In this document: one piece after another, positions 25,664 through 62,857 of the stretch | How the letters are laid out: each line of letters opens with the position of its first letter | Numbering within the stretch: position 1 is the stretch's first letter | Assembly (NCBI GenBank): GCA_051294905.1 | Contig: CM119371.1 | Span: forward strand, 38,690,001-38,754,000 | From: Botryllus schlosseri | Lineage: Eukaryota | Direction: 5' to 3' | Length of the DNA: 64,000 bases | Position numbers and translations under genes: made by a program | The notes under the pieces: model-generated | Told to the model about the DNA's origin: nothing | Seen by the model: the letters and a program-made list of their open reading frames with translations, nothing else | Databases searched by the model: none

Positions 25664-25846
25664 TCAAATATTTATATGATGTACTATCCAGTCATAGTAG
25701 AAGCTCTCCTGATTATACTCATCAGTTTTCGATACGTCGGCGTAAATTGCCTGAGATTCTCCATCGCAATCAGAAGGTTGTATGGCAATTCCCAGAAGAA
25801 TGTTGTCCTTGCCATATCCATCGTAAAGGGGACCACCTTGATCACC
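25664..25846 (-). CDS. Gene A exon 5 (GDQGGPL to stop)
   Basis: GDQGGPLYDGYGKDNILLGIAIQPSDCDGESQAIYADVSK...YYDWIVHHINI*; preceded by an 89-bp intron. Confidence 0.9.
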   Translation of the reverse strand, partial: GDQGGPLYDGYGKDNILLGIAIQPSDCDGESQAIYADVSKTDEYNQESFYYDWIVHHINI

Positions 25847-28800: not shown

Positions 28801-31800
28801 CGCCCCCTTCTTCCGCTTTCGCCCCCCTATCGCCCCCTTGGCTATTTTCGCCCCCCTGGACCGAAAAATCGCCCCCTGGGGGCCGATATCGCCCACGTTG
28901 GGAACCACTGGCCTATATTAATGTACACGATACCTAGCGACGATTCGGGCAGCATTACGTCACAATGCGGAAATACATATTGACGTTTTAAACGTCGCCA
29001 AATGCATCAACTGAGGCAATCAAATGATATAATAATATCATAAAATCCATATCTTCCGTTGCTTTGCCAACAATTTTGACGAGGACTTACCAGGGAATAT
29101 AAGGAAAGGGAGGGACGTAGTTAATTTTTGTCTTTGATTTTCTCGCGGCATATACAGCGACTCATGATATACATGCACACGATCTGCGTATATGCATACC
29201 ATGAGTAGGCTACATGATGTGCATATGCCGTCAGCCAAGGAAGATGCAGATTATAGCCTTGTAGCAGTGTTGGGATGACTCGAGTCATGACTTGACTCAA
29301 GTCAGACTCCAGTCACCTTTCTCGAATGACAGATCGGAAAATGTATTCGGCGTCTAAGTATTGCTATATTGATATTGAGCAGACTTTGAAACGGGTTTCT
29401 ATACTTGCTCTCGATATTACCCCGTTAACAAGTCAGCAGTAGCCAACGCCTCAATCGCACCGATTTGGTTTTAATGATCCAGTAAACATATGAAGTAAAG
29501 ATTGACCCCATACGCCTGCTAGATTGATTAGTGGAATAAGCATCATTCGCTGACTAGGCCTACGTAGCTTATTTCGATCGTGATGTTTTGTGATTGTTGG
29601 TCAAGATCGCAGCAGAGATTCAATTAATATTTACAAACGGAAAGTTGGATATTTCGAGCAAACTTTTGCAACAAAGCTAGTAAAACTTTTAAGATTGCCA
29701 AGGTATATGATCGTTTAGTGTTGATTTTTTATGCATATAGCGCCATGCATATAGAGTGGCCTGCAGTTGAAATGCAATAAATTTGAATCAACGATGTTGT
29801 AATGAAGTGAAATTGTAGTATATGAAAAAGGTGCACAGTGCAGAACCTACCAAGGTTCTGTTGTGAACGCGAACGTCTAAATTTCCGAGGTTCAAACACA
29901 GAACGCGAACGTGAACCTCACGTTCACACCATCCCTAATAAATACCAGTTTTCACAGAGAAAATGTGTCGCATACGACAAATATCATGAAGTGAGTTTGA
30001 ATTAGTGCGACCATGACGTCACGAAATTTTCGTTGTGACGTAACAGTTGATTGACCAGTATGGCTCTTTGAGAGTTATAATGGAAAAATAGGGCCAATAT
30101 GGCCCTTCCGACTAAAAAAGTTCCCGACCCCTGCTATGCACTATGCAGCATAGTCTGTGCTTACCTGTGTACACCGCTTTTCTGCACGAGCATTGAGGAA
30201 TTTGACTTATCACATCCAACATAGTATGCGCTTAATTTTGCACCTCTTTTCTGCGTCATCATTAAGGACTTCGACAACACTAAGTGCATCTGATAAGTGC
30301 CAGGCACGATCCGCTAATTCAGCCGCTCTTCATAACTTTCAAAAATTTAACTATGTACTACAACCCGAGCCCCATAAGATCGAACAGATTATAATGTCAT
30401 TGTTATGCTTTATATTTGTAATCAATAATATATATATATGATATGTGTGGACTCGTATGGACACTAGCTATTGACATAATGAAACAACTATGCCGGAAGA
30501 CGGCTAGAACGAAACATACAGAACGCTATCTGAGAGTGGTCAATGACGCGCGAATTCCCGACACAGTGCATTTTGCAACATATTTATATACCACGGTGTT
30601 TAATATACGATTTTGACGTCTTCGATATAATAAATATCAGATAACAAGGTATCAATGAACTTGTACTCGTACCGGCATGCCGAAAAATAGACACGCCGGT
30701 GCGAAACGATTATCGTTGATTTCATATATCACGAATGCAATCAATAGAACTGGGTTCAATTGTGCCGAGATAGCGCAGTGGTATGATCCGCGGCTGCAAT
30801 GGGCGAGGGTTCGAATCCGACCGAGGTCGACCTCAGAATACCTCAGTGTTGGCGGTTAATCCAGGCTCATCCTCGCCACCTCATCCGCGGAAACGGTGTT
30901 TTACAAAAAGCCTAGAAGTGAGCCTAGCGGTCGGCAGTTACGAAAAAAAATGAAAAATATGCCCACTTCTTCGATTAGGCTACTCGTCCTACTCGTACTT
31001 TCAAACCATCAGCACAAACGATTACCGAATTTTCTGTAAGCTCATCAATCAATTGTTCAGGACGCTAATTCGTCTTGGAGTGGCGTCATGAGACAACTTG
31101 TCGAAATGATGATAATCCGATTAAGTTTGGCCATATATGTTTCTCGCTGCTGCTCATGTTAAACAGCAGTTTGAGATTAAGCTCGTGGAGTAGGCCTATG
31201 CTACGCCAGATGTAAGAACTAGAAATACTTTTACACATTGCAGATTTTTCCTGATACCGAGTTATGCAACATATTGCTTGCTATACTCGCTTCATCTAGG
31301 CTCCTCCTCGCCATCTCATCCAAGTAAGCGGTGTCTTACAAAGAGCCTGAAGTGGGCCGTGCTACAGGTCAACAGTTACGGGATCAATATAAATAATATA
31401 CGCATGGTTTAAATGACCATAGTAGTCGACAAAACTCATGAATACCACAAACAAACAAACTAGCTTCACAATTCGTGACGCTTAACAATTAAAATTGTTA
31501 GTATTGCGGGTGTCCAAAAATGGCTTTTTAAATTGCACTGGTTTCTTGATAAAATTGTTAGGTTCGCTAAACATAGGAAGCACACTAATTTCGGTGCATC
31601 TAACCTACACATGCATTGCTACAAGAGAAAAAGTTTCAGATGCATTTGATGCAATTAATGATATATTTTTCTAAATTTTACTAGCCATCCTATGAAATTG
31701 GTTAAAAACGATGAACGTGAAGTATGTCCTAATTCAAATCAGTACGTTATTAGAGTACAAAGTTTAACATCAATAAAAAAAAATATTTACGGTGGATTTG

Positions 31801-34800
31801 TAATGATAAAGGTCGACTACTGTGTCACGTGGAGCCAACATTCATCAAAACACACCAATCCCAGCTTTGTCTACAAATGGAGTTCGTGTACTATCATAAA
31901 ATTATACCATGAGCGCTCTTTTATCTGAGATCTCATTTTGTGCTGGTGACGCCATAGTTTTTGATACGATTGATGCTATACAATGTTATTTCCAATTCTC
32001 TTTTACTAGCTGACGATTACCCCTGACGAGTGTCAGCTGAAAATATTCAAGTTTATTCCAATATGTGAGATGTAGTAACGATGAGACACTGGGAACGAAA
32101 ATACTTGTAAAATTCTCAATGATAATTCCATGAATACAGTGCACGAGTTTTCCTTTGCTGGCAGAATCTCTCCTCACATGCAAAAATTTTCGACCTGCGT
32201 GAGTTATGGGATCTGTGACCAATGATTTAGATTTCAGGGGGTGTAAAATAAAATTGAATCGACATATATATCTTCTATATCACCTTCTACAGCAACAAAC
32301 CAGCTGTAATATTTGAGGTGAGATATGAAGCATGCATCAGGGCATATAACGACAAATAGTTTTTAATTCAATACCATCCTCGATTGAATGGTACTTTAGA
32401 CAAATCCAGCAAAATAGTTACACAATCAAACACTTTTAACAACAGGAACACGACTACATATATAGAGGCTGTAAATAATAGTTTTTTGTGATGTTATATC
32501 GTTATGAGGTATTTAAGAGTCAAAATGTCAAGTTGTGGGCAATATGTATGTGGCAATAGCTCTGTAAGTTTGGGCGTAAATCGAAACGTGATTTTATGCC
32601 AACATTTGATTTGAAATAACCAATTTCATTCTTGAAGGTGGCGACGGAACATTCTTCATTGGTTTGCTGCAGCTCATATTATAGTACACAACAGAACAAG
32701 TTAGAAATATTTGAATTTTCGAGCATATGTCTCATAGGTCCCATGTTCGTGTGCCTTTGGATCCACCAGGTGGGGACCGATGATACGTCCGAACAGCAAA
32801 TTCTAAACGTTTAATAATATTTCTAGAAAAGGCGGATATTCATATGAATGCCCGCGATAGCTTAAGATTGGATCAAAGTTTTGAGCACGCAAAAGATCTG
32901 CTATTCTCGGCTGAAGATTTGATGGCCATAGATCATTTTGCAATAGCTGCTCCATCGTTACCACATCCCCCCTACTATTCAATTGCATAAATGTTTGAAT
33001 GTATACAATTTATTTACCGTAAAATTATGAATTTTAGAATTCTGTGTGATTATTGTCAATTTAAATTAGATGATTTAAATGCCATATATCTGAATGAATT
33101 ATAGACGCGTTATTTTAGCATTATAAATATGATCGGGCTGTTGTACATGATGAGCGTGACAGTTTCAACTAAATTCAATCTTTTACCTCAAAACTTTAAT
33201 GATGTTGTTGCTGTATTATGATTTAAAGCGAACTTCAGCGGTTACAAATAACACTTATGTTGAATTTCCGATTGATAATTGGACTCGGTTTTTAATTTCA
33301 AGCTCATACATGAAGAATGAGAGATTTTAGTAGAAATAACCCCACAGGTATATCCGGAGTCAGGGCCAATTATTTGAAAACGAACAAATTAGTGCCTTTC
33401 ACAACTCCCACGACCAATTTTACTTTGTCTGCCTAAAACATGTGTTGACAGGTGTGATAATATTCATACTAGAATGAGCACTTCCTATAAATATCCGTGG
33501 TTGAAATCATTCACCAAGCTACATTGGATGAAGTGACTCACGTTTAGCGTCATTATCGCCAGATCTCCGTGGGGGTCAGGTTTCACTTCCAGCCGATATT
33601 CCATTCCGCTTTTTCCGTCTTTTTCTATGGATCCCGCAAAAACCTTCCACTGTGATTTTTCTTCATCGATACTGATAATTTGAGAGACACAGTTGGATTA
33701 GACACATTTCAATATGTTTATGATATCATGCCTCTATCGTGAATACAGGCGAGCTAGTAAAATGTCAGAATAATGTCACTGTCAACGTTTCGCACCTGTC
33801 GGTTGAATCTAATCACTAACATGCTGCCCGCTCCAAAACATATATATCGGACTTTAATTTCAGAATCTTTAAGTCAGTGGTTCTCAACTGGGATCCGCAA
33901 AGCATTTTTAAGGAGACCGTGAAACCTCTATATTTACAAAATGATTGATAACCGTATTTTAATTCTGTTTCCGAAATGGAGAAATTGCGAGGCAGTTTCG
34001 CTTCACTACTGCTACAATTTTATGACTCGGATCAACTGAATGACCGTCTGAGATGAAATATCCCACTGTGCAAACTTATTTTAATTGCCAAATTTCCAAT
34101 AGCCTACTGATACAAACATGTTGCGGCTTAGAGTTGTTTTGTTGGGAACAAATAAAAAAGTAGCAATAGTAAGGTCATTCAGCGTGATTCATATGTTTGC
34201 AAAAATCCATTTTCCTGTGATATACATGACCACTATTCCAGAACAACTTCGAGGTGAGCTGCTGGATAGAAATAACTCGGGTGGACGATATATGTTCAAT
34301 AAAAGTCTGTGTCTCAATTTTGTCGGCATATATAGGCCTATGTTTCGAATTGCGATCATAGCCAAAAGGATTGTCAGAAGCGTTGCCCAATACAATTGGC
34401 CAACATCCATTTTTGTGGAAATGAATTTTCCGCACTCATTCATATAAAATAGAAGGCGCGGATTTCCAAGTCACGTCCACATATTTCAAGAAATGCATCT
34501 GCAAAATTCGCTACCTTTTGTCAAATCTCCACATAAATAGCGTGGTTCTATTTTCAAAAATAGTCATTTTGTTGCTGTATGTCACTTGCCTACAGTTAAT
34601 ATTTGCAGAAAATAGATCACGGTTGCACGATAATTGAGGTAACTTTAAACTAAAGCTTGGGGTCCGCGGAATCCTTGACGGTCGAAAACGGTTCCGCGAA
34701 GACAAAAGGTTAAGAACAGCTGTTTTAGGGACACCCAGACCAAATCTCAATAGATTTTTCACGGAACTCTGACTAAGTTATTTTTATATTCACAGTTATT

Positions 34801-36105
34801 ATCACTACAAATTAGATTGACCTAATCTTTTCATCCAAAATAAATTGTAGTGAACGACAGAATTAAGTACATGGAAAACGTGGTAACCTTTGTATCTGCA
34901 ACGGTATTTTTTGTATCTATTGCGAACATTTCTTTCGACTTCAACGTGGTTGAAGGCGGTGGCCTATTCATAACATTTGAACAAACTACGACTCCGGCTT
35001 CTGCAAGTATGTCATTCCCTAAATCCTATACTCATTAGGGCGGTCCCATATCTCGGTGACTCCAGCTCAACTGCCCTAATTTTACATTACCCAGTCCGAG
35101 CGCCGTCTCTTTCTCCAAGTATAACCACTAGACTATTTTCAGCGTTTTCAACTTGAATTCGATTTAGAGTTAAATAATTATTAAATAATATTCCAAAGTA
35201 TAATGTAATACAACAACAATCAGATTCATTGTCATGAGCACACGAATGACAAATAAATGTCTGTACAGCAAAGTTGACTCCTTTTGCAATATACAGCATT
35301 TTGAGAAATACCATAAATCAGATCTAATCAGTCTGATTACGAAACTGGAATCATCTACACTCACGGCGAAAAAAGTTTTGCCGAAAAGGTTGGTACACGA
35401 AAACAGAACCTTACTCAGTTATATTGCGGTCATAAATTCTACCTGCATACGACATATCTCCATACGTGCTTGCGTACATACAGAATTTGGAACAAATGCT
35501 GTACTCGATTTATACCGCGGTATAAGTCTGAGGTAAGTTCTGGTTTCGTGAACCATGGGTGTATATTCACACCTGTACATCAGGGATGGTACACGGGTGT
35601 GAATACACACTTCGCACTAAGATTGTAGTTGTCTATCTCTATTATGACTGCACCTGTTATCACGATTATGCATAATATAACATATTTTAACCGGGTTACA
35701 ACGTAATTTTTGCTTCCCCACTGTCGTCAACTCTGAAAATTGAGTAGTAGGAGCAGTAGAAAACCGTTCCGCTGCAGCTAAGACGGGAGCTCAATTTCCA
35801 AGAATAGGAAGAAAAAGTGCAATTACTAAGAATCGATGCAGGATTTGGACGTGATCGCTTTTGCGTAATCGTATTTGTCGGATGGTGTTCGAATTATGAC
35901 GCATCCGCATTTAAAGGTATTTCTGTAAGTCAGGTAAGCCATCGATTGGAATTCCCCCAGGTTTGCGTAAGCTCCGCTATAGATTCTGGTGCTTGCACCC
36001 TCAGCAGCTGTAATGAAACACAGAGGTGATACAATATATAGTTACCAATCTCGCTGTATTCTTACCTGATAGGATTGCTAAGATTATTACGATTACCTCA
36101 AACAT
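25664..36105 (-). CDS. Gene A: secreted trypsin-like serine protease homolog (S1A pseudoprotease), 5 exons, 255 aa
   Basis: Exons (minus): 36105-36066, 36007-35827, 33671-33542, 26169-25936, 25846-25664. All introns are GT..AG with phases 1,2,0,0, and the 768 nt join in frame. Protein: signal-like MFEVIVIILAILSAAEG, STR|IYSG, FKCGCVII, AITSKSC (His57 position = Ser), WKVFAG, GDLAIMTL (Asp102 kept), TIAGWG, QDMCMGDQGGPL (Ser195 position = Gln). Confidence 0.9.
25936..26169 (-). CDS. Gene A exon 4 (GWG region)
   Basis: QYKEHTHVPIESAII...TIAGWGYT...QCGNGVNELCVGNAWSTQDMCM; acceptor CTTCTATAG, donor GTAAGT. Confidence 0.9.
27498..29937. mobile_element. MITE with TAGGGATGGTGTGAAC TIRs (GTGAAC repeats), hosting other inserts
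   Basis: 16-bp TIR TAGGGATGGTGTGAAC / GTTCACACCATCCCTA; TSD not clear. Confidence 0.7.
27650..28910. mobile_element. hAT non-autonomous element with (TCGCCCCC)n subterminal array
   Basis: CAGTGTTTCC / GGAACCACTG termini; perfect 8-bp TSD GCCTATAT. Confidence 0.82.
30764..30960 (+). mobile_element. tRNA-derived SINE, copy with an intact Pol III head
   Basis: A box TAGCGCAGTGG (30771-30781), B box GGTTCGAATCC (30808-30818); body shared with the copies below. Confidence 0.75.
31296..31460 (+). mobile_element. SINE body/3' end with (AAAC)n tail
   Basis: CTAGGCTCCTCCTCGCCATCTCATCC..GCGGTGTCTTACAAA..ACCATAGTAGTCGAC..(AAAC)n. Confidence 0.7.
31830..32063 (+). mobile_element. Diverged Penelope-like family 2 3' fragment; hammerhead remnant at 32009-32052
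   Basis: GCTGACGATTACCCCTGACGAGTGTCAGCTGAAAATATTC is retained but the stem I partner is mutated (AAGT). Upstream GAGTTCGTGTAC matches the EN tail. Confidence 0.7.
32064..32972. mobile_element. Second copy of the TA-TSD element
   Basis: Colinear similarity to 43380-44340; ends in GTTACCACATCCCCCC-TA. Confidence 0.68.
33542..33671 (-). CDS. Gene A exon 3 (Asp102 region)
   Basis: IDEEKSQWKVFAGSIEKDGKSGMEYRLEVKPDPHGDLAIMTLN; acceptor TTATCAG, donor GTGAGT. Confidence 0.85.
33874..34721. mobile_element. Copy of the 15045-16429 family in opposite orientation, in intron 2 of gene A
   Basis: CAGTGGTTCTCAAC / GTTAAGAACAGCTG termini; the internal sequence is the reverse complement of parts of 15045-16429. 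Confidence 0.7.
35827..36007 (-). CDS. Gene A exon 2 (activation site R|IYSG to TSKSC)
   Basis: AAEGASTRIYSGAYANLGEFQSMAYLTYRNTFKCGCVIIRTPSDKYDYAKAITSKSCIDS; donor TA|GTAATT. Confidence 0.85.
36066..36105 (-). CDS. Gene A exon 1 (signal peptide MFEVIVIILAILS)
   Basis: ATG at 36105, hydrophobic stretch, donor G|GTAAGA, then a 58-bp intron ending TTTCATTACAG. Confidence 0.85.
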
Positions 36106-44340: not shown

Positions 44341-44952
44341 TATGACAACCCTAACCTAAGTCTGATTAATTTCTTGAAAGGGGACAATTTTTCCGAGAGG
44401 GTAGGTGCTCTGCAAACTGGTTTACGCGTCTACTTTCCACTGAGTTGACCTTTTTATTCGCGTCATTCATTTCATTAGTGCACTTTTTACCGTGTTAATT
44501 AAATACACCTCACTGGACGTTCTAACCTTTTCCCCCACATCTCCCCAGTCGCCCCCTTTGATATTTCTGCCCGCTTGTTTCTCTAAATCTCCCTTGGGGG
44601 CGATATCGCCCACGTTAGGAACAACTGCTCGAAACTGTTTCGAAATCATGCAGCGTCCCCGTTCATTACCTATTATTGTGTCTTGTGATTATGGTAGGGC
44701 ACAGCACTTCGAATGATCGGATCCGAGTTAGGTATCGATTGCATGCAGCGATTCGAGTCACTACGGTAAAAGTAAATTTTTCGGGCACCAAAATGATACG
44801 TCCCTAGCAATAGTAATTGCCAAAATGATAACATTAGCTCAGCTGGAGGGGTTGAGAGCCTTTTACAGGCATAATATTAAAAAACGTAAGACCTTGGTAG
44901 CTTTCACACTCTATTTAACGTCCACTAGCGAATGAATATAACTTTATTAATT

Positions 44953-44989
44953 ACACGAGCTTTCGGAGCGCTGCTCCTTCATCAGATGT
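44953..44989 (-). ncRNA. Minimal type I hammerhead ribozyme motif in the Penelope 3' region
   Basis: Minus strand ACAU-CUGAUGA-A-GGAGC(AGC)GCUCC-GAA-AGCU-C^GUGU: intact core, 5-bp stem II, palindromic AGCU stem III, 4-bp stem I. AAUAAA follows a few nt later (plus TTTATT, 44943-44948). Confidence 0.75.
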
Positions 44990-45635
44990 CAAAGCGAAAG
45001 TAACGCAAAAAGAGCAACGCAAAAATATTTTCAATTTGAACATATGCATATTATGACATCATAGGGAATGAGCAATTTTAGATTTCGAAGTCGCGTACTC
45101 TATGACGTCATAGACGCAAATATCAAGTTTTGATTTGAAATGCAAATAGTGAGTTATGTGCCTAAAATAGGATTGGATAAAGTGTTTATATGCTAATCTG
45201 AAAAGAACAAAAGGTGTTAAGTCAAGCATTCATGGTGTAGTGGGACATGCATCCTCTGTCTATATTCAGCCCTTCTCGGAAAGTATCAAATTTGTCGATA
45301 TATTTTTGTTCTGTAGCCTTGCGGAGAGTAGCGTCTTCCATGTCCCCGACCAATACATTGATAGTCATGTCGCTCTCCGAGTGCCCAGCGGAAGAAAAAT
45401 GATCACCCACAGGCTTCGATTTGTTACCTTTCGATATGTCGGTTTCAGTGACCTTTTACTCTTTTGTGAAGAGGTTGACTGCTTTCTCCTACGCACCATG
45501 CATTCGTACATCCTTTTCGACAGCGAATCAAATATACGACATTACTTGATTTACAAGTAAAATGGCCTTTGATGTTGTGCCGGGCGGGTCCTCTTGTAAT
45601 CACGATGCTGTATTGAGAATAGCACACGTCTTGTA

Positions 45636-46073
45636 TAGGCTTACCATACGTCCTCTTTTAAGAGGATTTGTCCTCTTTTTTTACTTTTTTGAAAGTGTCC
45701 ACGGAGGACGTCCTTTTGTCATTTTTTTTTGAGATTTTGTCGTCCTTTATGAAAATTTAGGTCAGATTTAGAGCCAATTGCGACCGATATGCCGTAAATG
45801 AGCACAGAAGTGACGCTCCGGAGGGTATTTCGGAGCGTAAAATGCTGTTTTGAGCTCCGAGAGGAAAGATTACCTTTTTTTTAGTCATCCACCTAGCAAC
45901 GTGGAGAAAAAAACGGTATTTTGAGATCCGAGCGGAAAGTTGACCTTTATTTAGTCAACCGGTCGCAAAGTAGGAAAAAATCACCGGTTTTTGTGAATTC
46001 TACTCCGGTTTTGTAAATCTCAAATTTCTGAAAAAGTGTCCTCTTATTTGATTTCCAAAATATGGTAATCCTA
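45636..46073. mobile_element. hAT-type MITE (TAGGCTTACCAT termini) inserted in the Penelope ORF
   Basis: TIR TAGGCTTACCATA / TATGGTAATCCTA; 8-bp TSD GTCTTGTA / GTCTTGAA; AGGAC subterminal repeats. Confidence 0.88.
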
Positions 46074-46414
46074 GTCTTGAATGATGGCTGTCCGCAATTT
46101 TCCGTGCCATTTTCTCGTTTGGACCGAGGTAGCTTACTATTTACCAAAATGTTACGCAAGTTGTGTGGTTGCCGGATGGCTAAAATAGGTCTTCTCGGGA
46201 ATACTTCATTTCATTTCTGATCGTTGATTAGTATTCGCTGATGTTTTCGTAAAATCGTACGGATCTTTTCTGCTCCAGGGAAATAAGTAGTGACCAGCGG
46301 CACTCTGCGATCTTGTGTTTCCTCATTGTGATTTCGACTGCAATCAAGGAGCTTTTCTCGTGGTACTTTGAGGGCCCTTTTTATTTGATTCCTTATTAGC
46401 TGTTGATCGTAGCC

Positions 46415-46837
46415 TAGGCTTACCATATTTCGGACATGTAAAAAGAGGACACTTTTTCAGAAATTTCAGACTTGCAAAACCGGAGAAGAATTCTCAAAAA
46501 CCGATAAATTTTTCCCACTTCGTGATTGGTTGTCTAAAAAACAAAGTTCATCACCTTCGCTCCTCACAGCTCAAAATAACGTTTTTCTCTCCACATTGCC
46601 AGGTGCTTTTCGCTCAGAGCTAAATTCACCGCTTTTCCCTCCGAAATACCCACCGGAGCTTCGCTTCTGCGCTAATTTGCGCCATATCACTCGCAATTTC
46701 CTCTAAATCTGAACTAAATTTTCAAAAAAGAGGATAAAATCTCAAAAAAGAGGACAAAAGGGCGTCCTCCGAGGACACTTTCAAAAAAGTCAAAAAAGAG
46801 GACAAATCCTCTTAAAAGAGGACGTATGGTAAGCCTA
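46415..46837. mobile_element. Second copy of the same hAT MITE, opposite orientation
   Basis: TIR TAGGCTTACCATA / TATGGTAAGCCTA; perfect 8-bp TSD TCGTAGCC. Confidence 0.92.
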
Positions 46838-48989
46838 TCGTAGCCAGATTTGATTAGTTCGTGTTTCAAAACTTCCAAATGTTCATTTTTGTCCTCTTTC
46901 TTCGAGCAAATTTTATGAATTCGAAGGGCGTTGCTGTAAACTATTCCTTTTTTACATATTGGATGGAAACTGTGGTAGTTTAAAATCTTACCAGAGTCCG
47001 TAGATTTACAGTAGAGTGATGTGAAAATGCGACCTTCTTCGATGTTGAAAAGCGTGTCGAGGAATGAAACTGCAGTCATCGAGCTCCCCATGGTCAGACG
47101 AATGTTAGGATGAAATTGGTTGATTGAATCATGAAACTTTTTCAGTGACTGTTCTCCAAGGGTCCATATCATGGAAATGTCGTCGATGTATCTCGTATAA
47201 AATTTTAGCCGCAATGTTTGTGTCTCCATGAAATCCTCCTCAAAATGATGCATGAAAAGATTTGCGTATTGCGGAGCAAATTTCGTGCCCATTGCCGTTC
47301 CTTGAAGCTGTAGAAAGATCTCTTTGTTGAATTCGAACGTGTTGTGATTTAACGTGAAGCCGATAAGTTCCATGATGCTTTTCTTTGAAGGATGTTCAAT
47401 TTCTGCAAGAGATCTCTCCGCAGCCTCCATGCCATCCTCATGAGGAATACTTGTATGCAGGATGAAACGTCCATGGTGACTAATATCGTTCCTGATACTA
47501 AGTGATTGACATTCATGAGTTTGTTCAAAAAGTCCGTGGTGTCACGACAAAAACTTGGTGCGCTTTTCATGAATGGCTCAAGGTGTTTTTCCACGTGTCC
47601 GAATATGTCTTCCGTTAGAGTTTTGTTGCATGACACAATGGGGCGTCCAGGAATATGCTCTTTGTGCAATTTCGGTAGAAGATGGAAGCGGCCAAGAGAG
47701 GGGTCAGACGGGATATTGATCGTTGATTTCTCGTCTTCTTCCATATCCAAAGATTTTATAATTTTCTTTAATCGTTTTGTGTGTTATTTCGTTGGGTCAC
47801 AATATAGTTTCTGATACGACACAGAGTCGTTCAACTGTCTGTAACCTTCTTCTAGATAGTCTTTCAGGTCCATGATGACTACTTTTCCGCCTTTATCAGC
47901 AGGCTTGAATACGATGCTCTCTTCCTGTTCGAGTTCTGTGATTGCCTTTTTCTGCTTCTTCGTAAGATTTTCGTTGTAGTTTCTGTTCAGGTGTTTGGAC
48001 TTACTGATGAATGTAGCGTTAATTTGGTTTTGGAAACTTTCTAGATATTTGTCCAAATTGCTGTTCGCCGTGAGGTTCCTGCTCTCCATGTTATGTTTTT
48101 CTTGGGCTTCTTGATAATTTGTTCAGTTATCTCGTTCGCATTCTGAGAAACTTCAATTTCCGGATTGACATCGTAAAAATGGTACTTGTTCCTCATTTTT
48201 CTGTCGAATTCATCGGCGTCTCCAGCTAACACGTAATGATCTAGTTTTTGGCCGGAATTTCAAATTAAGACTGAGAACATCGAATTGTGATTGCGTCAAG
48301 GTTTTGCTAGACAGGTTAGCAACGGCTATATCCGATTTATTACTTTTAGCTGTGGCGCCCGGTGGCAGTGAAATTTTGGATTTTCCCCTTTCCAGTACCA
48401 ATTGCGTGATTTTTTTCTCTTTTTGAAGTATCATACCTTTGACTTCGTTTGTCGAAATTTGTTTAGCCAATTCACGCAAATCTCTTTGTAATTGGTGATT
48501 ATCAACTAGATTTATGGTGCCATCAATATCGTACCTGAACTTTGCTCGGCTTCTGTAGTGAAAATCAGTCAGATGTGACATCAATTTCTTCGACATTCGC
48601 CGAGCCAAGTTTTCTGAGTACGTGGTCTTGAAAGTGTTGCGTAGTGGGTTTTGAATTCATAGACCATTCGGAACGAGTTCGCGCTTTTTACATTCCAATA
48701 GAAAATAATATCAGCATTTTTGCGAGCAATCTTCTTGGCGATCCTTTCCACTTTGATTCGGCATTTTCTGGTGTGATCCATAGTTCAATACTTTGTTGCG
48801 CCGATAGCAGACGATATATAAAAAAACGTATGACCTTGGCATGATATTTTTAATCCTATTTCCGTGATGGTCATATGATAATTTTTGAAACGTAAGGAAA
48901 GTAACACGTATAAACTATGCCATTGTACTGACCATTAAAAACCTACACCTACTGTTTTTCTTCAATATGAACATAGTGTCATATATTCC

Positions 48990-51942: not shown

Positions 51943-54900
51943 GTAAGCAGCACTTTGCTCGGTCAGGGCAGACATGGACATCTAGAGAATTCCAGTTGCC
52001 TCATTAGAGTATTTCGATCGATATGCCGGTAATGTAATTAATAACTAATTTATGAAATATTTCTTTGCTGTAATTCTAATTATAGTCGATTTTATGAAAT
52101 GTTTGTATGCTCTCAATATATTATAACATTGGTCAACAAAATGAAAAAAAGAATTTTGCAGAACAACTTTAGGAGCCGTTTCTGGGGTTTTCAAGCTGAC
52201 TGATTACGAATATCACATTAGTTTTGCCTGATTGGCTCTCGAAAAGAAGTTATTATACCTTGAAAAAAGCTTAAAATCATCGTATTCAACCATGGATATT
52301 TCACTTAGTAGCAAGTAAATCTTCGATTTTCCTACTTTTATTCTGCTCATAAGCAGAGATGGGCGGATTCCAGATTTTGGGAATCCGTATCCGTCCTGAT
52401 CCGACAGTCAAATAGGATTTCGGAGTCCGACAGTGGAGCAACAAAATTAGGATCCGAAAAAATCCTGCTATTGCTTTAGTGCTATTTCACATTAAATATA
52501 GCCTGCAAAACAGATATGAACATTATAATCAACAAATTAGTATCACGTAATGCCTCACAAGGGTTTATTTAAATCACATTTCAAATCAATAATGTCAAGT
52601 GCAGTATATATCTTGAATATAAATGCGAGTAGTAGGAACTAGGCAGGGGAAATGAGCTAAAAAGACTGTGAGAACAGAGAAAGCAATATTAGTTGCTTTA
52701 CGGAGAGGGTAAACATAGTAACCCAGGCATGCCATGATGCCAACAACAAAATCAGATATTGTGCATTGTGACTTGGCCAAGACAGCTAGGCCTATAGTAC
52801 TACTGAAGAATGGAACTTAATTTTTACAGAACAGACGTGTATCAAACAAAATGAATGAATCAATCAAAATGATTACTTGATAGAGCAGCAATGAATAGGA
52901 AATATATATATAATATTATATAATCAGCATGATGATGTGCACAATCAATCAGAGAGTACCAGTGGTACTTCAGTTCTAGTGTGTTTCCGAAATCATAAAC
53001 ATGACCAATTGACCATGCCAGCATATATTCATCATTACCACAACACACAATCATTCCAAATGACATAAGAAATCAGAACCACCAGTTACCTCTGCATTCT
53101 GCAACAACACCGACACCTCGCTTTTCTGCCATCCTGACAACTGATATCAAGTACCCTAATGGCTGATGAACAGGAAGGATAAGAATCAATATCTGAGGAA
53201 CAACTGAATTCGAAAACAAACACTTCTGCAACTCGCTTGATGGAGCCTGCCTTCGTCCTCATCTCATCCAGCAGTAATCTCATCATTGGAGATGCACAAA
53301 CTTTACCTATGTTGCTTGCGCATTTCCACGAGGTGACAGGTGTCAGCGGTTTCAACGTTGTCATTATTGTCGGAACCAGCATGGGCTTGATCCATAGCAA
53401 TGAATGCATTTAACTACGGAAATAATATCGAAGCAGCTTTTTTCATTGAATATAAGATATCTTGAACCTTTATCACTCAATATTTGTTATGAATATCAAA
53501 TCCTGTTTAAATCCGGCTCATATGACAGTTTCAGAATCCGGCTCCGATCCGGCCACAGTAAAATTCATCAAAATCCCGGACTGTGGCCATCTCTGCTCAT
53601 AAGTAGATAATGGACTATAATGAACACTCACGTTGTTCTCAGTCATTCTATCAATATTACCATGACCTGATGCGAGAACTTTGTTTGTTAAACAAGCAGT
53701 TTGGCAAGCCTAAAACTTGTACTTTTGCACAATGGACATATTTTCTTCTGTACCAATTGCACATTCTACCAAGATCATAGAGAAGTATAAAGCTTGTCCC
53801 TCGAATGCTTCACCGAAATACTCATATGCGTCTCATCTCTTTTCACTTGTAAATGTGTATATAAAGTGGGAATACCTAGTATCCATATCAAACGAGAAGT
53901 TTGAAACTGGAATCTTTGATGGATCTCAGATTCAAATACAAACTAAGGATTACAATTTAGTATTGAGAATGGTGCTAACTGCATGGAATTCTCTCTATGA
54001 TGTGGTAAATAAAACTTTTTGAAAATCACAAAGCACCCAACTACAAGCAGTTAGTCCGAGAATTGGTAACGGGATATGTAAATCTCACGTCCTGCTTGGT
54101 GATCTTGATATATTTGCTGATAATATTGTGAATTAGAGGGGATAGAAAGAGGAAACGTTCCACCGATACATCAAAATAACAAAAGAAATATATCAGTGCA
54201 GATGCGACGAAGATATTATGGCAGACTATTAGTGGAATCTTTCAAAAAACTGCACTACATTCTTTCAAACCGAAAATAGCACAAGAACGAATTTTGCTTT
54301 AGGATAAGTTGCTAATAATATATACCAACTGAATATATTGAATTTGAAATGCGGCGTTGACATAAAACTGATTCAATTAATGCAACATTATTTGAGTATC
54401 TTGATAAATACCTATATACATGATTGAAGTTTATTTGTGTACATGATATCCGTGAAAGTCTCCAATTATATGATTAATAAAACACCCTGAAATGTTATTA
54501 TGTTGATGTATTTTGATTTAATACAGTATTCAGAGTGTTAAAATAACAAGTAGATTGAATTTCCGAACTTTATACTACGACTAGCTCGATTTTTCATGTA
54601 GCCCATACAGCGAAAAATGAGATTTTAGTCAAAAGACCCCATGCATTATCTCCAAAAATAGCGCCAATTTGAAAAAATATAAGGCCATATTCAGAATCAG
54701 TGCCCTTCAGAACCCCCAAAACCACTCTTTCTTAGTCTGCCTAAAAATATGTGTTAACCCGTGTAATTAAATTTCCTGTTTCCATGTGAATCGAGCTGTG
54801 CCTGCTTTGCAGACATTTGATATTCTCATGCGTATAAGAAGGAATTATGATTTGATATGATCTAAATTTGATTTAACGTAAAGGTTTTCAAGAATTCAAT

Positions 54901-57900
54901 AATTCCAATTATAATCTAGTTTAGCGAAAACCGTTTAGCTATAAATCTAATTATAATCTAATTTGGAAACGCCTAAAGTTTCCAGTTGTCAGAGTCTGGT
55001 TCAGTAAAGCCAGCGTAACTTAAACTATAGACTGTGTTTTGATTAAGGAACGCGTGGCGATGACAGCAAAATAGCGAGCGGATCGAATGCATTAACGGGG
55101 CAATTTCCATCGATGGCGCATCTACAGATTGATGGGGACTTCGCATGCGCCGCTGTTGTGATAGCCGACATGGCCGCTCTGACTGCAGCAAGCTGTATCA
55201 ACAACAGGTAGCTTGTGTGCTGTGTTCTCAAAGCTTACCTCTATGATTAACGTGTTGACTTTACAGCATACACGGCCTAGTCGTTATGAGTAAGTGTAAT
55301 ACATTCCGGTTTTTACAACATTTTCGTCCTGTTTGTGATAGTTAATAAATCATTTCATGTTGCTTATAGCAACGAAGGTATTTTGGGTCACGAGCTATCT
55401 CATTTCACCAACCAATACGAACTTATCGATTAACTTTGTAGCGTACTGCATGACATTCCCGATATCAGTCTATTTGTCATGAAACGCGTATACGGCATCA
55501 TGGTGAAACTGCGAAATCGACAATTATTCGTGATCGACTACTCTGTGTATACAATCGATATCTTTGTAAAAAAATATAATTACTGAATTTGTTCAGTTCA
55601 AAAGGCCTATGGAATTGGTGGCCAACCTTTTTTCGATTCACGGACGCATTTCGACTACTCATGATGCCTACGGCCGCATTCCAGGGAATTGTCGTAATGA
55701 ACTAGCTGGACGCCAAATACCCTTATTAAAGTGTCTAAGTCCATTTCCGGTGAACTTCGAACTAATCTATTTAATCGTAATAGGCATACGCACCGACATC
55801 GCGAGTGGTCACTGGCCATGGTCATGTTATGGGATTCGCCTATAGTCGCACGAAGCCTACGGACAGTCGGACAATTACCACTCGATATAGCCGACGTATA
55901 TCGATATGGGTTGGTCGGAACCCTCAAAATAGTATGTTCAACAGCAATAGCACATATATTTCGTCAGAGGAGCTATTTCTACCCTATATTTTCAATTGTC
56001 AATGTCATTTCACTATGACGTCATAATTGAATACTCGTGACGTCACGGATTTGAAAAAAGAACATAAAAAACAAAAGAACATGTTTTAAATTAGGACTTT
56101 GTTTTAAACATGTTTGTTTGAAATTGATTTTTGTTCTAAATGCAACTCTAGTTATATCAATATATTAACATTGGAAACGTCAAAATATGTGAACTTCACA
56201 CATTACTTATTATTATATTGAAAGCATCAGTAATGTTCTTCGATGCGTCTTAAGAAGCGAATCATCCACATTTAGTCGCGCAGCTGATAAATATATCAGG
56301 TTAATTATACAGTGACTCGAAATGACATGCATAACGAAGCGAATCAATTCGAGACACTATCATGTATACTTCTAGACCGCGCGGTTGGGCAAACAAACAC
56401 AGAACTCATTGTTTGCAGGCTGGTAGTGTTGTGGTAGCTGAAGATTTTTTTATTTCAGAGTGTACAGCCGGGAAACGTGGAAGGTTGTCGCTGGAACCAC
56501 CGCACGATCTCCAACCGATGAGCCAAACGGATTTGTTTTCGGAATGCACGGCCCACCGATACAGCATCTTCATTACGATAATTGTACTCGTCAAAACAAC
56601 ATTGCGATACTATTCCTTGAAGTGAGACATTTTGGTACCGCAGGATTGACTCCTAGATGGCGTGAGCAGCAGATGTGATCAAAGTACATAGCAAGCGTTT
56701 GTACTCAAGTATAGGAGTAGAAGTATTACAATAAAAATCCACTCTATTATAATAAGAAGAAGTGGCGAGCTTTAAAACATGCCATAATAACTTCAAATTG
56801 AAGTAAAAAATTGAGGCATCAAAAGTACTTTAGTAAAGAATTTCAAGAAGTAGATTAGGTCATGGGACTACGCACTTTCAGCCAGTAATCGATATGTTGA
56901 TGACGACATCAAATGTCACGAAATATTTTAGAATCCTTTGTCCGAGATGGCCTAAATCAGTGTTTCCCAAACCTCTTTTAGCTACCGCCCCTTTGGGCAA
57001 CGAATAAAGTTATAAAATGCCTACTAAAATATTATTACTACATGGACTAGATAAAAAAAAATCATAATTTATTTTTAGTTCGTTGTTGATGCGATTGCCC
57101 AGCCTAAAATCCCAACGTATTTGAAAGGTTTCAACTGCTAAACATCACAGATAGGTAAAGCGGGAATGACTTTCAGATCACGAATGTAATTTCACATTGG
57201 TCACTACAGCAAGATAATAACTTTTAGTGCTGTAGTTCGAAAACCGATTCGCGCGTGTTAAGTTGATATTTTATCTCTGTGTGCAGAAGTAGCCTATTTA
57301 TAACATCTATAAATTTAAGTGGGGGAGTATTTGAAGCTAACATGTTTATGACGCTGTCAGCATTGCGTGTCCTGGAGTGGAACCAAAACTAGGATCAGCA
57401 AAACCATATAAACCAGGGACGGGCAACTTCTCCAGTGGGCGGGCCGGATGTCGGAAAATTAAGTACTTGGCGGGCCGGATAGCTGAATCGATACATTCGC
57501 CCATTTATCCACATATACAAGGAATAAATCGCATCTAATGAATGTATTGTAACGACAGCAATGTCATTTCAAAGCCATTTCTCGCCGATAATGACGAAGA
57601 CAATGTGGATTTGGGAACACCATTGTCATACAGGTGCCGCCATGTCTGCTTATCTCTGATCAATCAACACATGGCGCAATCCTTAATTAAGATTTCGAGG
57701 CGTTCTATAAGCCCAGTCATTAGGGTAGAGTACATCGTAAATGCCGATATATTGCAAGTCTTCTCGCTTGTACGGACTTACGCGTAAGCTCCACTCTCGC
57801 ACGCATTTTCGGTTATGTCCATTCTCAGTATTGGTTTACTCGGTGTTAGTACATAACCCTCGCGGCCCTAATCCGCTGATGTTGCCCACTACATGCTTAC

Positions 57901-60900
57901 TTCGTCAAATTCTACTGAGTATATGTTATTATTTGCGTGTGTGCGGCGTGTGAGAGTGGAGCTTACGCGTACGTAACAGTTTTTCATATTGCGCTTTTCG
58001 ATATAAGAACCATGAAATGCGCAAGCAGTCTTGCTTCAGTTAGGATATTGCGGTACCTTGAGCATAACACCATGTCAACCAATTTGTTTCATTCGATCGT
58101 TTATGATTCACCATGAGCAGACAATTGGCCATCCACAACGGTAGGCCTATAAAGTAGGCTACAAGCTGTAAAATGTCTGATGATAAGCTCGCCGACAGTG
58201 CAAGATCTACGATACAAACTAAATGCAGGCTGCAAAAAACTTTTAATTTTGTGAACAATTTTGAGATTTTTTGACCTAAGGCTACACGACCTAATTTTAA
58301 TAACATGCCAAAAAATCGCCCTGCGGATCACTGATCACAAATCTTAATCTCCATCCTGTTCTCAGAATCGGAACAACCGAATTTCATACATAGGTTTGAA
58401 AATTGGTTATCAAGGTTGACCAGCTAAACAATGTTTCCGACGCATGTACAATAAGACTATTTAAAATGAATTTATTTTTAAATTGTACTGGTTACTTGAT
58501 AAAATTGTCAGGTTGCCTAATTGAAGCCTGGATACCAAATTTGGTTCGATTCCAACCAGTATCCGCATTGCTACAGGAGAAGAAAGATTTTTATTTATTA
58601 TATGAAAATAAATACAAAGAAGCCAAAATTTTCTGTTCGCCCCATGAAATTGTTAGGTTGTCTATGGAAACGATGCTCACCAAATTAGGCTCAATTCCAA
58701 CAACTGGAAGCAGAGTTATTGTCGTCGAAATATATTTGATCTGAGCGATTTGTAGTAATGCGGCGACTGGTTGGAATTGACCCAAATTTGGTGTGCAGGC
58801 TTCAATTAGGTAACCTAACAATTTTATCAAGTAGCCAGTAGAATTTGAGAAAAATTTTAATTTAAATAAAAATATTTTTTTCATATCTTCACTATATAAT
58901 CAAATACCAATAATGTGTTTTGGTTTATAGTCCTAACGTTTTGAAGTGCCACCCGTAAATGCATTTAAATGTTGAATGCGTGCCGCGAGTGAGTTTTCCC
59001 ACCTTTAGTTTAACGTATAAACACATTAGTGAGCAGTAAAATACGGAAAAAAAACGCAATTAAGTGGTCATAAAAAGCAGGCATATTTCGTCAATAGCCA
59101 ATGGTCATCTTTTCGTGTTGGATGTTTAGTATTAAATATTGATATCTGAGCATAAGCATTTCTCATTCGATTACAGATTACATTGGCCTACGTGTAAAAT
59201 CCAGTTGATTTAGTCTACAATAGGCAATTTGTGTATTGATGTTCTGACATTGTGATTGTGACAATTACTATCATACAAGTGATCCAAAACCATCCCCAAA
59301 CTACTTCGTACTCTTCCAAATCCACGGTTTCAAAAATCAGTAGATTTACCTCAAAAACTGTTCACGAACGAGGGTAGTCTGATTTAAATCTAAATCCGCT
59401 GTGACGTGGCAATTGAATATTCATGACGAAATGGCTAACAAAAAACTGTTTTGAATAAGGCCATATTTATTTTAAATCGATTTTAGCTTTAAATGAAGCC
59501 CGACCTACGCGTACATTACATTCCATTTCAGCCCGAACAGCAACATTCCGGCAGCACAGCTGTCATCCCGGCAAGCATCATACAAGGCAGGTCAGTCAAC
59601 CTGTACGACACTGTTACAATCGCAGGATGGGGCCAGACCCACGCAGGTGCAGATCTAAGGGATCAGCTACAATACATGAATACAGTGTTTCTCCCTCGAG
59701 ATCATTGCAACTCCATGCATTACGACGGCTTGCTCACCGAAGACATGACATGTACAGGAAACGAAGACATATGCCCTGTACGTAATGGATTTTACATTGT
59801 TAGATTTAACTTACAATTTCCAACTTTCTACCAGTGTTGGGATGACTCGAGTCATGACTTGACTCGAGTCAGACTCGAGTCACCTTTTTCGTATGACTTG
59901 ACTTGACTCGAGTCACTTTGCAAAAATGACTTGACTTGACTTGACTCGACGCCTCAGAAATGCGGATTGACTCGTGACTCGGAGCAAAATTCATGAGTCA
60001 ATTTCAAGTCATTAAGTAAACGGTGTCGATTAAATCACCCTATATTATGTATGTTTTGGTTGTTAGCGATACGCCGGTGTCACTTGTGAGACAAACCAGT
60101 CTTCAATAATTCTAAGTTTCACTGATCATCTATTGTTACATCACAAATAAATTGATAGCTTACGAAACCATCACACCTACGTTGTCGTAGTAGCAGTAGA
60201 TTTATCTAAACGCATCGTATCTCTGTTCCTTAGGCAGCTTAGTGCTTACATTGCGCAGTGCTCACCTTTACCAACACTCTTGTATGATTTAAATCGAACG
60301 AATATAGCTTATGCCTTTATATTCTCACAGAGGTGTAGGTGGGTAGTGCCTATTGTACCACATCAATTTGTTCAGCTTCTCGAGGCTTCGTATTCGATCC
60401 TTTATATTGGCTGATAAAATCAGACTGTAGCATGTAGCTATACAGTTACGTATTTTATTATCAGTTCTACGTGTGCGTGAGCGATACAACACCTTTTTGC
60501 AGGAATATTTCCCTTTATAATCGTCATTTGATTCAAGATAAATGGCCAATTAATCTATCCTTCACACAGCAAAATGTAAGGACTTTGGATCATCACTTAT
60601 ACTTCGAAAATTCAATTTGACTCGAATCGTGACTTGACTCGTGACTTGACTTGACTTGACTCGACTTGACTCGAGTCACCTCCAAAAAACGAGTGACTTG
60701 ACTTGACTCGAGTCACCTTAGAAAATCGATTGACTTGACTTGACTCGAGTCAAAATGTGCAATGACTCGAGATGACTCGTGACTCGAAGGTAGTGACTTG
60801 ATCCAAACACTGCTTTCTACTCAAGTAAGACCAGCATGCAGGCCAAAAATGCTTAGCGTAAAGGTACAAATTAGGGATGTGGAAGGTATTCAAGTAAGTA

Positions 60901-62857
60901 TCCACCATTGACTCGATTCGCAATTTTTTGTCGACTCGGCTGGACTCGAGGTATTTTCAGAAAAATGTATAATACTCGACTTGAGTCACTTTGTGTATTG
61001 ACTTAACTTGTACTCGAGTGATTGCGCGAGACTCCGCAATGTCATATGAGCCAGGACAAATCGGGTCAGAATCGATCTTTTAGACACGCCGGCCTTTCGC
61101 ACCCCGTTATCGTCATATCACTAAATGCAACAAACATCATGACTACCACAAACAACCTGAATGCAACCAGAATGCTAGCAACCCCAACTGATATTTTGAT
61201 GACACGGAAGGCTATGACTGTTGAGACAATTCTCAAATGTGGACTTCGGACTCTAAACAGTGCTACAGCTTTGATTCGGGGATAAATCGCGCGAAGCGCG
61301 AAAAAAAAACTCAATTGACTGCAGCTTCGCGCCCCCTTTCAGTTGCTTTCACGCCCTCCAGTTTGAGATTCACTGCTGTAAAAATTGGACATGGTCAATG
61401 TGTAGCCATCGTTTGTAGTCAAGTAGAAGTAGAAATAGCGATTTCCAATTAGGTAAGTGAGGATGCCTTCTCACGACTGAACGAGAAGAACTAATAATAT
61501 TACGTCAATACGTTTTCTTTTTGTAAATATCTTTTAGTTGCCGTTGTTGTTGTTTGATATTGGTGCTCAACTTCTAATGGCATTTTGCACAAGATCTGTG
61601 ATGAGAGTATCATGTACTCATGCTAGATGATTGACCAGTAATGTTCCCCAGCAGAAACGAAAGCTAAGCGGTCACTAATTTGCTCCAGTGAATCCTGTCG
61701 AGAGCCTTCATATTTGTGCAGTAATGTTCAACTGTTTATGGTACGCCACTACATTCGCAGTGACCGGTGTCGTGGACCCCCCATTCTATGCAGATGCGAG
61801 TTCCATTTTTCCAAGTTCACAGCAAAATATCACTCGTAAAGATGATGAGACACGCACCAAAATCATTTTCTACTTCGCAAAATCTCAACATCGATAGTTT
61901 TGTCTCAAAAACAGCGGTGGAAGCGGGAGTAGTGTATACTAACATTTGAGTAGGTGGTGCAAGTAGGCGAAACTGAATCAAGTACTCCTACTTTTTTGAA
62001 GTACTACACTAGGTCTGCATATATAGGTCTTCATTGCTCATTATTTTTACTTACTTATAAATGACTTGCCCTTCTGGTACTTGAGCAGATATTTACGTCT
62101 ATACTTCTAAATCCATTCGGGTACTTTACCGCAGTGCGATTATTTTTTTAGTGATGTTATTGATGTGTAATTTGACTCCAGAAGGTTGCTCGTTTACTTC
62201 GCTGCGTATTATTTCTTATTCCGTCGGACCTGACTAACTCACGCATATGAAAATGACATAACACGCGGCAGCCTGCCTTGTAGACACACAGAGATCACGA
62301 CACGACGAGGATTTGTTCTAACAGCCCCACAAATATAGGCTTTATTGAATCAGATATATTTTCGACTGTAATTATTATATCATAACATGAACAAATGTAT
62401 CCATATCAATTCGAGAGTATTACAGCGTGGCATTTCTTACAATGTTTTCGTGTGAAGCACGAAGTCTGATCCACTGTTTCTTGGGAGTGTTGATAACTTC
62501 ATATAAAGCATGATGATTTGTCTGCAATCTTTTCTTCCGACTTTCAAGGTGGGCTACGAATATATTCCGTTATAGGTACAAACGATAACTAATTTGATAG
62601 CCCTGCTCTTCGGATATAAAGATCAATATTTTAATAATATCTGTAATATATAATAATGTTTAATTCAGGGAGATATCGGCGGCCCGATGTACGCAGGGAC
62701 CGGGCAATCTAACGAACTGATTGGCATCGCAGTGAGAGAGAGCACGTGCACCGCCGACGGGGTTCCGGGAGTATTCATCGATTTACGAAACGATGACATT
62801 TACAACTTTATATATTGGAATTGTTTGCGCTGCGGTCTCACGGCGCCGATTGCTTGA
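51888..62857 (+). CDS. Gene B: secreted trypsin-like serine protease homolog (S1A pseudoprotease), 5 exons, 270 aa
   Basis: Exons 51888-51942, 55048-55207, 56459-56621, 59532-59777, 62669-62857. GT..AG introns with phases 1,2,0,0; 813 nt in frame. Protein: MKFVQATRWVAVVFLLVAG, TRGDDSK|IASG, GQFPSM, FACAAVVI, LTAASC (His57 = Ser), WKVVAG, QNNIAILFL (Asp102 = Asn), TIAGWG, EDICPGDIGGPM (Ser195 = Ile). Confidence 0.9.
52127..54763 (+). mobile_element. Chapaev3-like (CMC) DNA transposon relic in intron 1 of gene B
   Basis: Termini CATTGGTCAACA / TGTTAACCCGTG with TAA on both sides. Decayed transposase motifs SVPIAHS, ISNEKFETGIFDGSQI, AWNSLYDVV, KAPNYKQLV, ETFHRYIK...YQCR...IMADY*W. The superfamily name comes from recalled motifs. 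Confidence 0.7.
52354..53595. mobile_element. hAT-type non-autonomous element nested in the Chapaev relic
   Basis: TIR CAGAGATGG / CCATCTCTG, perfect 8-bp TSD CTCATAAG, ATCCG subterminal repeats. Confidence 0.88.
55048..55207 (+). CDS. Gene B exon 2 (K|IASG to LTAASC)
   Basis: GTRGDDSKIASGSNALTGQFPSMAHLQIDGDFACAAVVIADMAALTAASCINN; donor AG|GTAGCT. Confidence 0.85.
56459..56621 (+). CDS. Gene B exon 3
   Basis: VYSRETWKVVAGTT...IQHLHYDNCTRQNNIAILFLE; acceptor TTTTTTATTTCAG, donor GTGAGA. Confidence 0.88.
58395..58870. repeat. Foldback-like array of ~110-bp subrepeats with an inverted last unit
   Basis: 58470-58575 is the imperfect reverse complement of 58750-58860; related units at about 58400, 58645 and 31490-31740. 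Confidence 0.65.
59532..59777 (+). CDS. Gene B exon 4
   Basis: PEQQHSG...VTIAGWGQT...DQLQYMNTVFLPRDHCNSMHYDGLLTEDMTCTGNEDICP; acceptor TTCCATTTCAG, donor GTACGT. Confidence 0.88.
59832..60812. mobile_element. hAT MITE with GACTCGAGTC/GACTT-rich subtermini, in intron 4 of gene B
   Basis: TIR CAGTGTTGGGAT / ATCCAAACACTG; perfect 8-bp TSD CTTTCTAC. Confidence 0.9.
62669..62857 (+). CDS. Gene B exon 5
   Basis: GDIGGPMYAGTGQSNELIGIAVRESTCTADGVPGVFIDLRNDDIYNFIYWNCLRCGLTAPIA*; acceptor TTTAATTCAG. Confidence 0.9.
   Translation, partial: GDIGGPMYAGTGQSNELIGIAVRESTCTADGVPGVFIDLRNDDIYNFIYWNCLRCGLTAPIA

Follow-up and report, generated by a model that had tools for sequence, protein, structure and literature searches.

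A 64,000-nucleotide stretch of the Botryllus schlosseri genome (assembly GCA_051294905.1, contig CM119371.1, positions 38,690,001 to 38,754,000; hereafter the window, with coordinates counted from its first letter) carries two divergently transcribed genes, A and B, for proteins of the S1A (trypsin-type) serine protease family whose catalytic residues are replaced. Both are real, intact genes, and their predicted products are almost certainly catalytically dead; they are further serine protease homologs (SPHs), not a new system. A preliminary description of the locus, made from the sequence alone, had proposed an uncharacterised system, and that claim is set aside here, since such SPHs form a well-described class (PMC11172050 and PMC13194640, cited, like the other literature below, from excerpts).

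Gene A occupies 36105 to 25664 of the minus strand and gene B 51888 to 62857 of the plus strand, so that the two stop codons mark the limits of the region (25664..62857) to which the preliminary description had drawn attention. The exons and the residues they encode, with key positions given in the numbering of the family, are as follows.

36066..36105, minus strand: gene A exon 1; start codon and hydrophobic signal-like segment (spliced model, hydrophobicity)
35827..36007, minus strand: gene A exon 2; four-residue propeptide with terminal Arg, Ile16, Cys42, Cys58 and an extra Cys; His57>Ser is TCC at 35843-35841
33542..33671, minus strand: gene A exon 3; Asp102 kept; phase-0 end 7 residues past Asp102, a class-6-type intron position as defined in PMC7914634
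25936..26169, minus strand: gene A exon 4; GWG (140-142), Cys168, Cys182, Asp189, Cys191; continuous over 149; Pfam Trypsin, E 9.6e-5
25664..25846, minus strand: gene A exon 5; Gly193, Asp194, Ser195>Gln (25840-25838), Ser214>Ile, Gly216>Pro, Cys220, stop codon
51888..51942, plus strand: gene B exon 1; start codon and signal-like segment; RNA-supported splice to exon 2
55048..55207, plus strand: gene B exon 2; acidic four-residue propeptide with terminal Lys, Ile16, Cys42, Cys58; His57>Ser is AGC at 55191-55193; Pfam Trypsin, E 1.4e-5
56459..56621, plus strand: gene B exon 3; Asp102>Asn (56598-56600); an extra Cys within an N-glycosylation sequon; phase-0 end 7 residues past position 102
59532..59777, plus strand: gene B exon 4; GWG, Cys168, Cys182, Asp189, Cys191; continuous over 149; 64% identity to P0004, an open reading frame (ORF) taken up below; Pfam Trypsin, E 1.1e-9
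62669..62857, plus strand: gene B exon 5; Gly193, Asp194, Ser195>Ile (62675-62677), Ser214>Val, Gly216>Glu, Cys220, C-terminal CxxC tail, stop codon

The coding sequence of gene A comprises 768 nt (255 aa) without internal stops, interrupted by introns of 58, 2155, 7372 and 89 nt; that of gene B comprises 813 nt (270 aa) in an open spliced frame, with introns of 3105, 1251, 2910 and 2891 nt. All four introns of each gene are GT-AG, with phases 1, 2, 0 and 0, and all four fall at equal offsets in the two genes: 9 codons before Ile16, 4 after position 57, 7 after position 102 and 3 before position 195. The proteins share 28% identity (E 1e-29), and intron offsets that match despite such divergence support the gene models independently of RNA. 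Rebuilding the genes from sequence recovered what had been described earlier, namely two highly diverged, divergently transcribed five-exon genes with open frames, this phase pattern and signal-like N termini, the last judged by hydrophobicity only. No third copy was found within the window by tblastn with both proteins. G+C content across the window is 39.5%, with a CpG ratio of 1.05; vertebrate DNA is depleted in CpG, and this ratio argues against a vertebrate source. Repeats make up 0-21% of each intron of A and B, a lower bound given by self-matches within the window.

Pfam Trypsin matched four of the eight exons scanned (E 1e-9 to 5e-3), three of the four at the curated cut-off, and this check, suggested in the preliminary description, bore out the trypsin fold. 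A profile of 243 reference S1A domains, taken from 150 proteins (the best 150 of 538 matches in an exon-4 profile search), aligned both spliced proteins over their full length, Ile16 through the final strands, with 139 and 95 bits for A and B; the highest identity of either to any of these domains is about 30%. Proteases of the S1A family require His57, Asp102 and Ser195. The corresponding residues are Ser69, Asp110 and Gln198 in protein A and Ser67, Asn119 and Ile211 in protein B (protein residue numbers), exactly the lesions first described: His57>Ser and Ser195>Gln with Asp102 kept in A, and His57>Ser, Asp102>Asn and Ser195>Ile in B.

Changes extend beyond the triad. Of 35 near-invariant positions, each shared by at least 85% of 166 triad-intact domains, 23 are retained in A and 26 in B (12 and 9 lost), against a mean of 32.7 and a minimum of 22 in the triad-intact domains. 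Gly18, His57, Ser195, Ser214 and Gly216 are lost in both proteins, while the six core cysteines, GWG, Leu155, Gly193, Asp194, Gly196-Gly197-Pro198, Gly211 and Ile16 are kept in both; Asp189 is also present in each. Gly216, found in 148 of the 166 active domains, is Pro in A and Glu in B, and Ser214 is Ile in A and Val in B, substitutions that would close the entrance to the S1 pocket. With no nucleophile at 195, no base at 57, and both Ser214 and Gly216 replaced, the two proteins should be incapable of catalysis, in agreement with the prediction already made for them. A relocated triad was considered and dismissed, as position 195 holds no Ser, Cys or Thr in A or B.

The Cys136-Cys201 bond is absent from both proteins, and the filled cysteine columns are the six core ones (three disulfide pairs). 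Total cysteine counts are odd, seven in A and nine in B, the latter including the C-terminal CxxC. The extra cysteines, at residue 49 of gene A and residues 114, 260 and 263 of gene B, might leave one thiol free for covalent dimerization or linkage to a partner. Both mature chains are acidic, with calculated isoelectric points (pI) of 4.9 (A) and 4.7 (B). Gene B exon 4, folded alone, gave an unusable model (predicted local distance difference test score, pLDDT, of 45).

Four RNA runs (X3, X6, X7 and X10) were mapped to positions 35760-55300, with 6-25% of each run read. This segment holds intron 1 of each gene, two of the eight predicted junctions, and the libraries appear unstranded. In run X3, five reads (three starts) among 12.9 million records skip exactly 3105 nt, the length of gene B intron 1, and the joined reads match the predicted exon 1-2 junction but for one synonymous letter. 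Gene B is transcribed and spliced at a low level. Its intron 1 joint was not among the joints listed for X6, X7 and X10, of which X10 was uninformative, with four mapped reads in all. The junction mapping called for in the preliminary description thus confirmed splicing of gene B intron 1 in one of the four runs and did not reveal splicing of gene A. In the bin holding gene A exons 1-2, depth was 0 in X3, X6 and X10 and 0.22/0.16 in X7, about two reads' worth and under the threshold for listing. A search of sequencing runs with 33400-36300, which spans gene A exons 1-3, listed no RNA run.

Simulated neutral substitution left the start, frame and splice sites of gene A intact in 6 of 4000 trials at 28% residue change and in 1 of 4000 at 35%; for gene B the counts were 13 and 0 of 4000. 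These simulations cover substitutions, without counting indels, and do not measure present-day selection. Pure neutral decay of A and B is rejected. The earlier suggestion that selection has kept both genes holds up, given that no more than 0-13 of 4000 simulated trials stayed intact and that structural residues were kept while catalytic ones were lost.

The order of inactivation and duplication is less direct. In a quick tree search with 60 of 117 reference proteins picked at random, one domain each, A and B were sisters (Shimodaira-Hasegawa-like approximate likelihood ratio test, SH-aLRT, 97) on a shared stem of 1.78 changes per site, with terminal branches of 2.25 (A) and 1.47 (B). The two proteins also have in common 18 residues that each occur in fewer than 15% of the 243 reference domains. 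The long shared stem and these rare residues suggest that, by the time A and B split, their family was already far removed from normal proteases, which fits an early loss of activity. The shared His>Ser replacement, put forward in the preliminary description as the sign of this order, proved weak, since the codons, TCC in A and AGC in B, lie two changes apart. Ser57 was rejected as a dating mark, for no residue replaces His57 more often than Ser (13 of the 41 non-His domains, in 7 of 19 proteins); the long stem is better, though indirect, evidence for divergence before duplication. A further protein, P0001 (4066 aa, 14 tandem S1A domains), has Ser or Gln in place of His57 in several of its domains and shows that this change recurs.

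One relative emerged from the searches, P0004, a 121-aa ORF on one Logan contig with 64% identity to gene B exon 4 and apparently the same exon limits; over 78 ungapped positions, 16 of the 28 differences are conservative. P0004 may be an orthologue or a paralogue of gene B, and in a protein atlas it leads to generic Trypsin clusters. Word-index protein searches with B exon 4 (37 candidates), its ORF (6) and an exon-2 alignment (86) yielded no relative, a weak negative, as the ORF search missed P0004 too. Metagenome scans gave 105 and 256 pattern matches, none of which was confirmed.

We consider it reasonably probable that A and B represent a secreted, single-domain S1A serine protease homolog of trypsin-type ancestry, as old paralogues specific to their lineage. 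Such proteins are abundant elsewhere: Tenebrio molitor has 125 SPHs, of which 102 are without regulatory domains (PMC11172050). Like A and B, the single-domain SPHs of Tenebrio and the SMIPP-S proteins of the scabies mite (PMC13194640) have a signal peptide, a short basic-ended propeptide and one trypsin-fold domain with the triad replaced and the cleft remodelled, and the Tenebrio triad patterns, which include S-D-V, S-D-G and H-N-I, are akin to those seen here. They differ from A and B in animal group and independent origin, and no described family matched A or B by sequence. The clip-domain SPH cofactors of prophenoloxidase were rejected as a model; Ile16 is residue 22 of A and 27 of B, too near the N terminus for a clip domain.

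Azurocidin (CAP37, heparin-binding protein; PDB 1a7s, 1fy1), which carries His57>Ser as A and B do, gave a weak match to gene B exon 2 (E 0.046). It too is an inactive single S1A domain encoded with class-6 introns, as are A and B, and it is confined to placental mammals (PMC4646688), whereas the acidic proteins A and B are without Cys136-Cys201 and start from a propeptide of trypsinogen type. Any likeness in inactivation is convergent. Inhibitor binding by azurocidin is the subject of a title cited in PMC2229344.

Intron positions also bear on descent. In the Ciona cationic trypsin gene, a phase-0 intron separates residues 109 and 110, and a second intron, of phase 1, lies at 149; the former is absent from vertebrate class-2 genes through loss, and the latter likewise from class-6 genes, those of the granule proteases (PMC7914634). 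Genes A and B have a phase-0 intron after 109, 7 codons past position 102, and an exon 4 unbroken from 110 to 192, hence none at 149. At both sites they match the class-6 pattern (granzymes, chymases, elastase, azurocidin, factor D), and they show the reverse of the class-2 pattern of vertebrate trypsins and kallikreins (149 intron, none near Asp102). The Ciona gene shares with them the 109/110 intron and Asp189, and its acidic, Lys-ended propeptide, three Asp and a Lys (PMC7914634), resembles that of B, two Asp and a Lys. It carries the 149 intron as well and is presented as a typical trypsin, while A and B are without that intron and without the triad and have three core disulfide pairs. The class-6-like layout would most likely reflect a parallel loss of the 149 intron from a trypsin gene that had both introns; one intron loss suffices for the pattern, and parallel loss would be likelier than descent shared with class 6. 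In the literature searched, which covers few subscription journals, we found neither a published inactive trypsin homolog from a tunicate nor the class-6 intron pattern outside vertebrates; PMC2527998 reports trypsin-like expressed sequence tags from Botryllus and, in the excerpt consulted, does not discuss catalytic residues.

Our best reading, by analogy with known pseudoproteases, is that A and B would be cleavage-switched, non-catalytic secreted binding proteins. After removal of the signal peptide, a trypsin-like enzyme would cut the four-residue propeptide behind its terminal Arg (A) or Lys (B). There is slightly more reason to expect than to doubt that the freed Ile16 then pairs with Asp194 and orders the activation domain. 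Once folded, the acidic protein might use its remodelled cleft or its surface loops to bind another protein, as ligand or cofactor, much as the HGF beta-chain or the insect SPH cofactors do; binding through the S1 pocket is unlikely, as its entrance carries Pro (A) or Glu (B) at 216. Cleavage-activated ligand and cofactor pseudoproteases are established (PMC13194640). The HGF and MSP beta-chains, protein Z and haptoglobin use the S1 fold as a binding surface, HGF and MSP being cleavage-switched (PMC13194640), and their way of working is probably like that of A and B; they are multi-domain or two-chain vertebrate plasma proteins, while neither A nor B has a further domain. The likeliest setting, though at less than even odds, would be a secretory or blood cell type of restricted kind.

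Several observations weigh against the reading of A and B as old, selected paralogues of trypsin-type descent with a cleavage switch. The RNA mapping covered two of the eight junctions, and no gene A intron 1 joint was among those listed in the four runs. The tree is a quick one with sampled references and a long branch for gene A, and no relative of A appeared in the best 150 of the 538 exon-4 profile matches. Ile/Val16 and Asp194 are kept in 39 of 44 inactive reference domains, so their presence is weak evidence for a working switch. Tunicate trypsins are reported to carry Cys136-Cys201 (PMC12844481), and its absence from A and B means that descent from a tunicate trypsin costs one more loss.

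Four other explanations were weighed. One is a role in the gut lumen, where the two SPHs would be released together with digestive trypsins and either act as decoys for inhibitors in the diet or assist zymogen activation. The acidic, trypsinogen-like propeptide of B, the retained Asp189 and the acidic pI suit such a role, and 95 domain-less Tenebrio SPHs are expressed mainly at feeding stages (PMC11172050). We consider it unlikely, as replacement of Ser214 and Gly216 should block canonical inhibitor binding, and five B junction reads in 12.9 million records, with none in two other bulk runs, seem few for a digestive protein.

Granule proteases and azurocidin are cationic, and class 6 has a Cys136-Cys201 bond; A and B, with their acidic pI, have neither feature. 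This counts against a second explanation, which we find quite unlikely: that the class-6 lineage of factor D, granzymes and neutrophil proteases is not the vertebrate innovation it is taken for but is older than vertebrates and already existed in the invertebrate chordate ancestor, and that A and B are its dead, acidic descendants in granular blood cells (as granule proteins of morula or test cells), inactivated independently in an azurocidin-like manner and perhaps forming a disulfide-linked or cleavage-switched pair. Beyond the phase-0 intron after 109 and the lack of one at 149, which define the class in PMC7914634, this idea draws on PDB searches, in which gene B exon 2 ranked factor D (19.4 bits), neutrophil elastase (17.8) and heparin-binding protein (17.8) over trypsin (14.2) and granzyme A was level with trypsin for exon 4. 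A Met-Ala pair is found in A, B and factor D (14 of 227 reference domains), and PMC13250551 reports strong expression of granzyme/MCPT homologs in killer and mast-like cells of tunicates. The best PDB matches, however, vary by exon, from TMPRSS6 and factor D (exon 2) to trypsin-2 and granzyme A (exon 4) and Streptomyces trypsin and chymotrypsin (exon 5), all a few bits apart, and exon 3 of gene B gave one chance match. A single intron loss produces the same gene pattern, and homologs of the chymase locus and of granzymes A/K were not found in tunicates, according to the excerpt of PMC4646688.

A structural or adhesive role in tunic, egg coat or mucus, with cross-linking through the spare cysteines, is improbable; the predicted secretion, acidity and odd cysteine counts would suit it, but repeats and matrix domains are absent and the activation-site residues are kept. 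It is very improbable that one or both genes are decaying pseudogenes, or that A was recently silenced, for although A showed no spliced reads in the four runs, has the longer branch and lacks a relative in the matches considered, the frames are open, the splice sites canonical and the structural residues kept, simulated decay seldom leaves such genes intact, B is spliced, and a small part of each run was read.

The region between the genes lends no support to a regulated pair. The preliminary description called A and B head-to-head; their orientation is divergent as stated, and the start codons lie 15,782 bp apart (untranslated 5' exons are possible). Bidirectional-promoter pairs have starts within about 1 kb and are co-expressed. 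With this spacing, and with run X3 showing B and not A, we rejected a bidirectional promoter, and a co-regulated pair is unsupported on the same grounds. Several repeat families lie between the genes, and so does a dead retroelement, which likewise does not favour such a pair:

44882..48821, minus strand: degenerate Penelope-like retroelement with broken reverse transcriptase frames, split by a 1.2-kb inverted-repeat element (RVT_1, E 3.1e-6, 27.5 bits, cut-off 29.6)

The limits of the retroelement were inferred from an RNA joint running from its end to its start (48821 to 44882), with 22 reads (21 starts) in X7 and one read in X3, as would be expected from head-to-tail or terminal-repeat copies of the family elsewhere in the genome. 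A motif near 45657-45448, noted by eye, is presumably GIY-YIG-like. The 1.2-kb element inside it (45635-46838) has inverted arms of about 450 bp that are 80% alike, and a related piece lies at 63281-63625. In X3, X6 and X7, RNA depth over the mapped stretch peaks at a near-perfect 480-bp palindromic element (42527-43005; arms 96%), probably because many copies occur in transcripts; related pieces lie at 3409-3725, 4116-4257, 15902-16000 and 31821-32065. Tandem units of 5 and 37 bp occur inside the members of a dispersed repeat family (14744-14961, 16777-17072, 19291-19410, 19681-19819, 29259-29330, 59826-60166 and 60596-60813), copies of which lie in A intron 3 and B intron 4. A repeat of 170-200 bp resembling a short interspersed nuclear element (SINE) occurs at 30838-31460, 37257-37452, 41194-41390 and 48990-49185, and a minus-strand signal-peptide-like exon near 41412-41310 was rejected as gene A exon 1, being a copy of this repeat. 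Two plus-strand stop-free stretches, 7688-8092 (135 codons) and 11395-11766 (124 codons), have no Pfam match and are probably repeat remnants.

As pseudoproteases, A and B are ordinary, two further undescribed members of a class that reaches more than 100 copies in some genomes, and their interest lies in gene structure. Deep lineages of S1A genes are assigned by their intron positions, and class 6 is derived in the published scheme from a tunicate-type precursor by one intron loss. The class-6 pattern in a non-vertebrate genome would mean either that this marker is prone to parallel loss, and hence weaker than assumed, or that the lineage of immune granule proteases goes back further than supposed.

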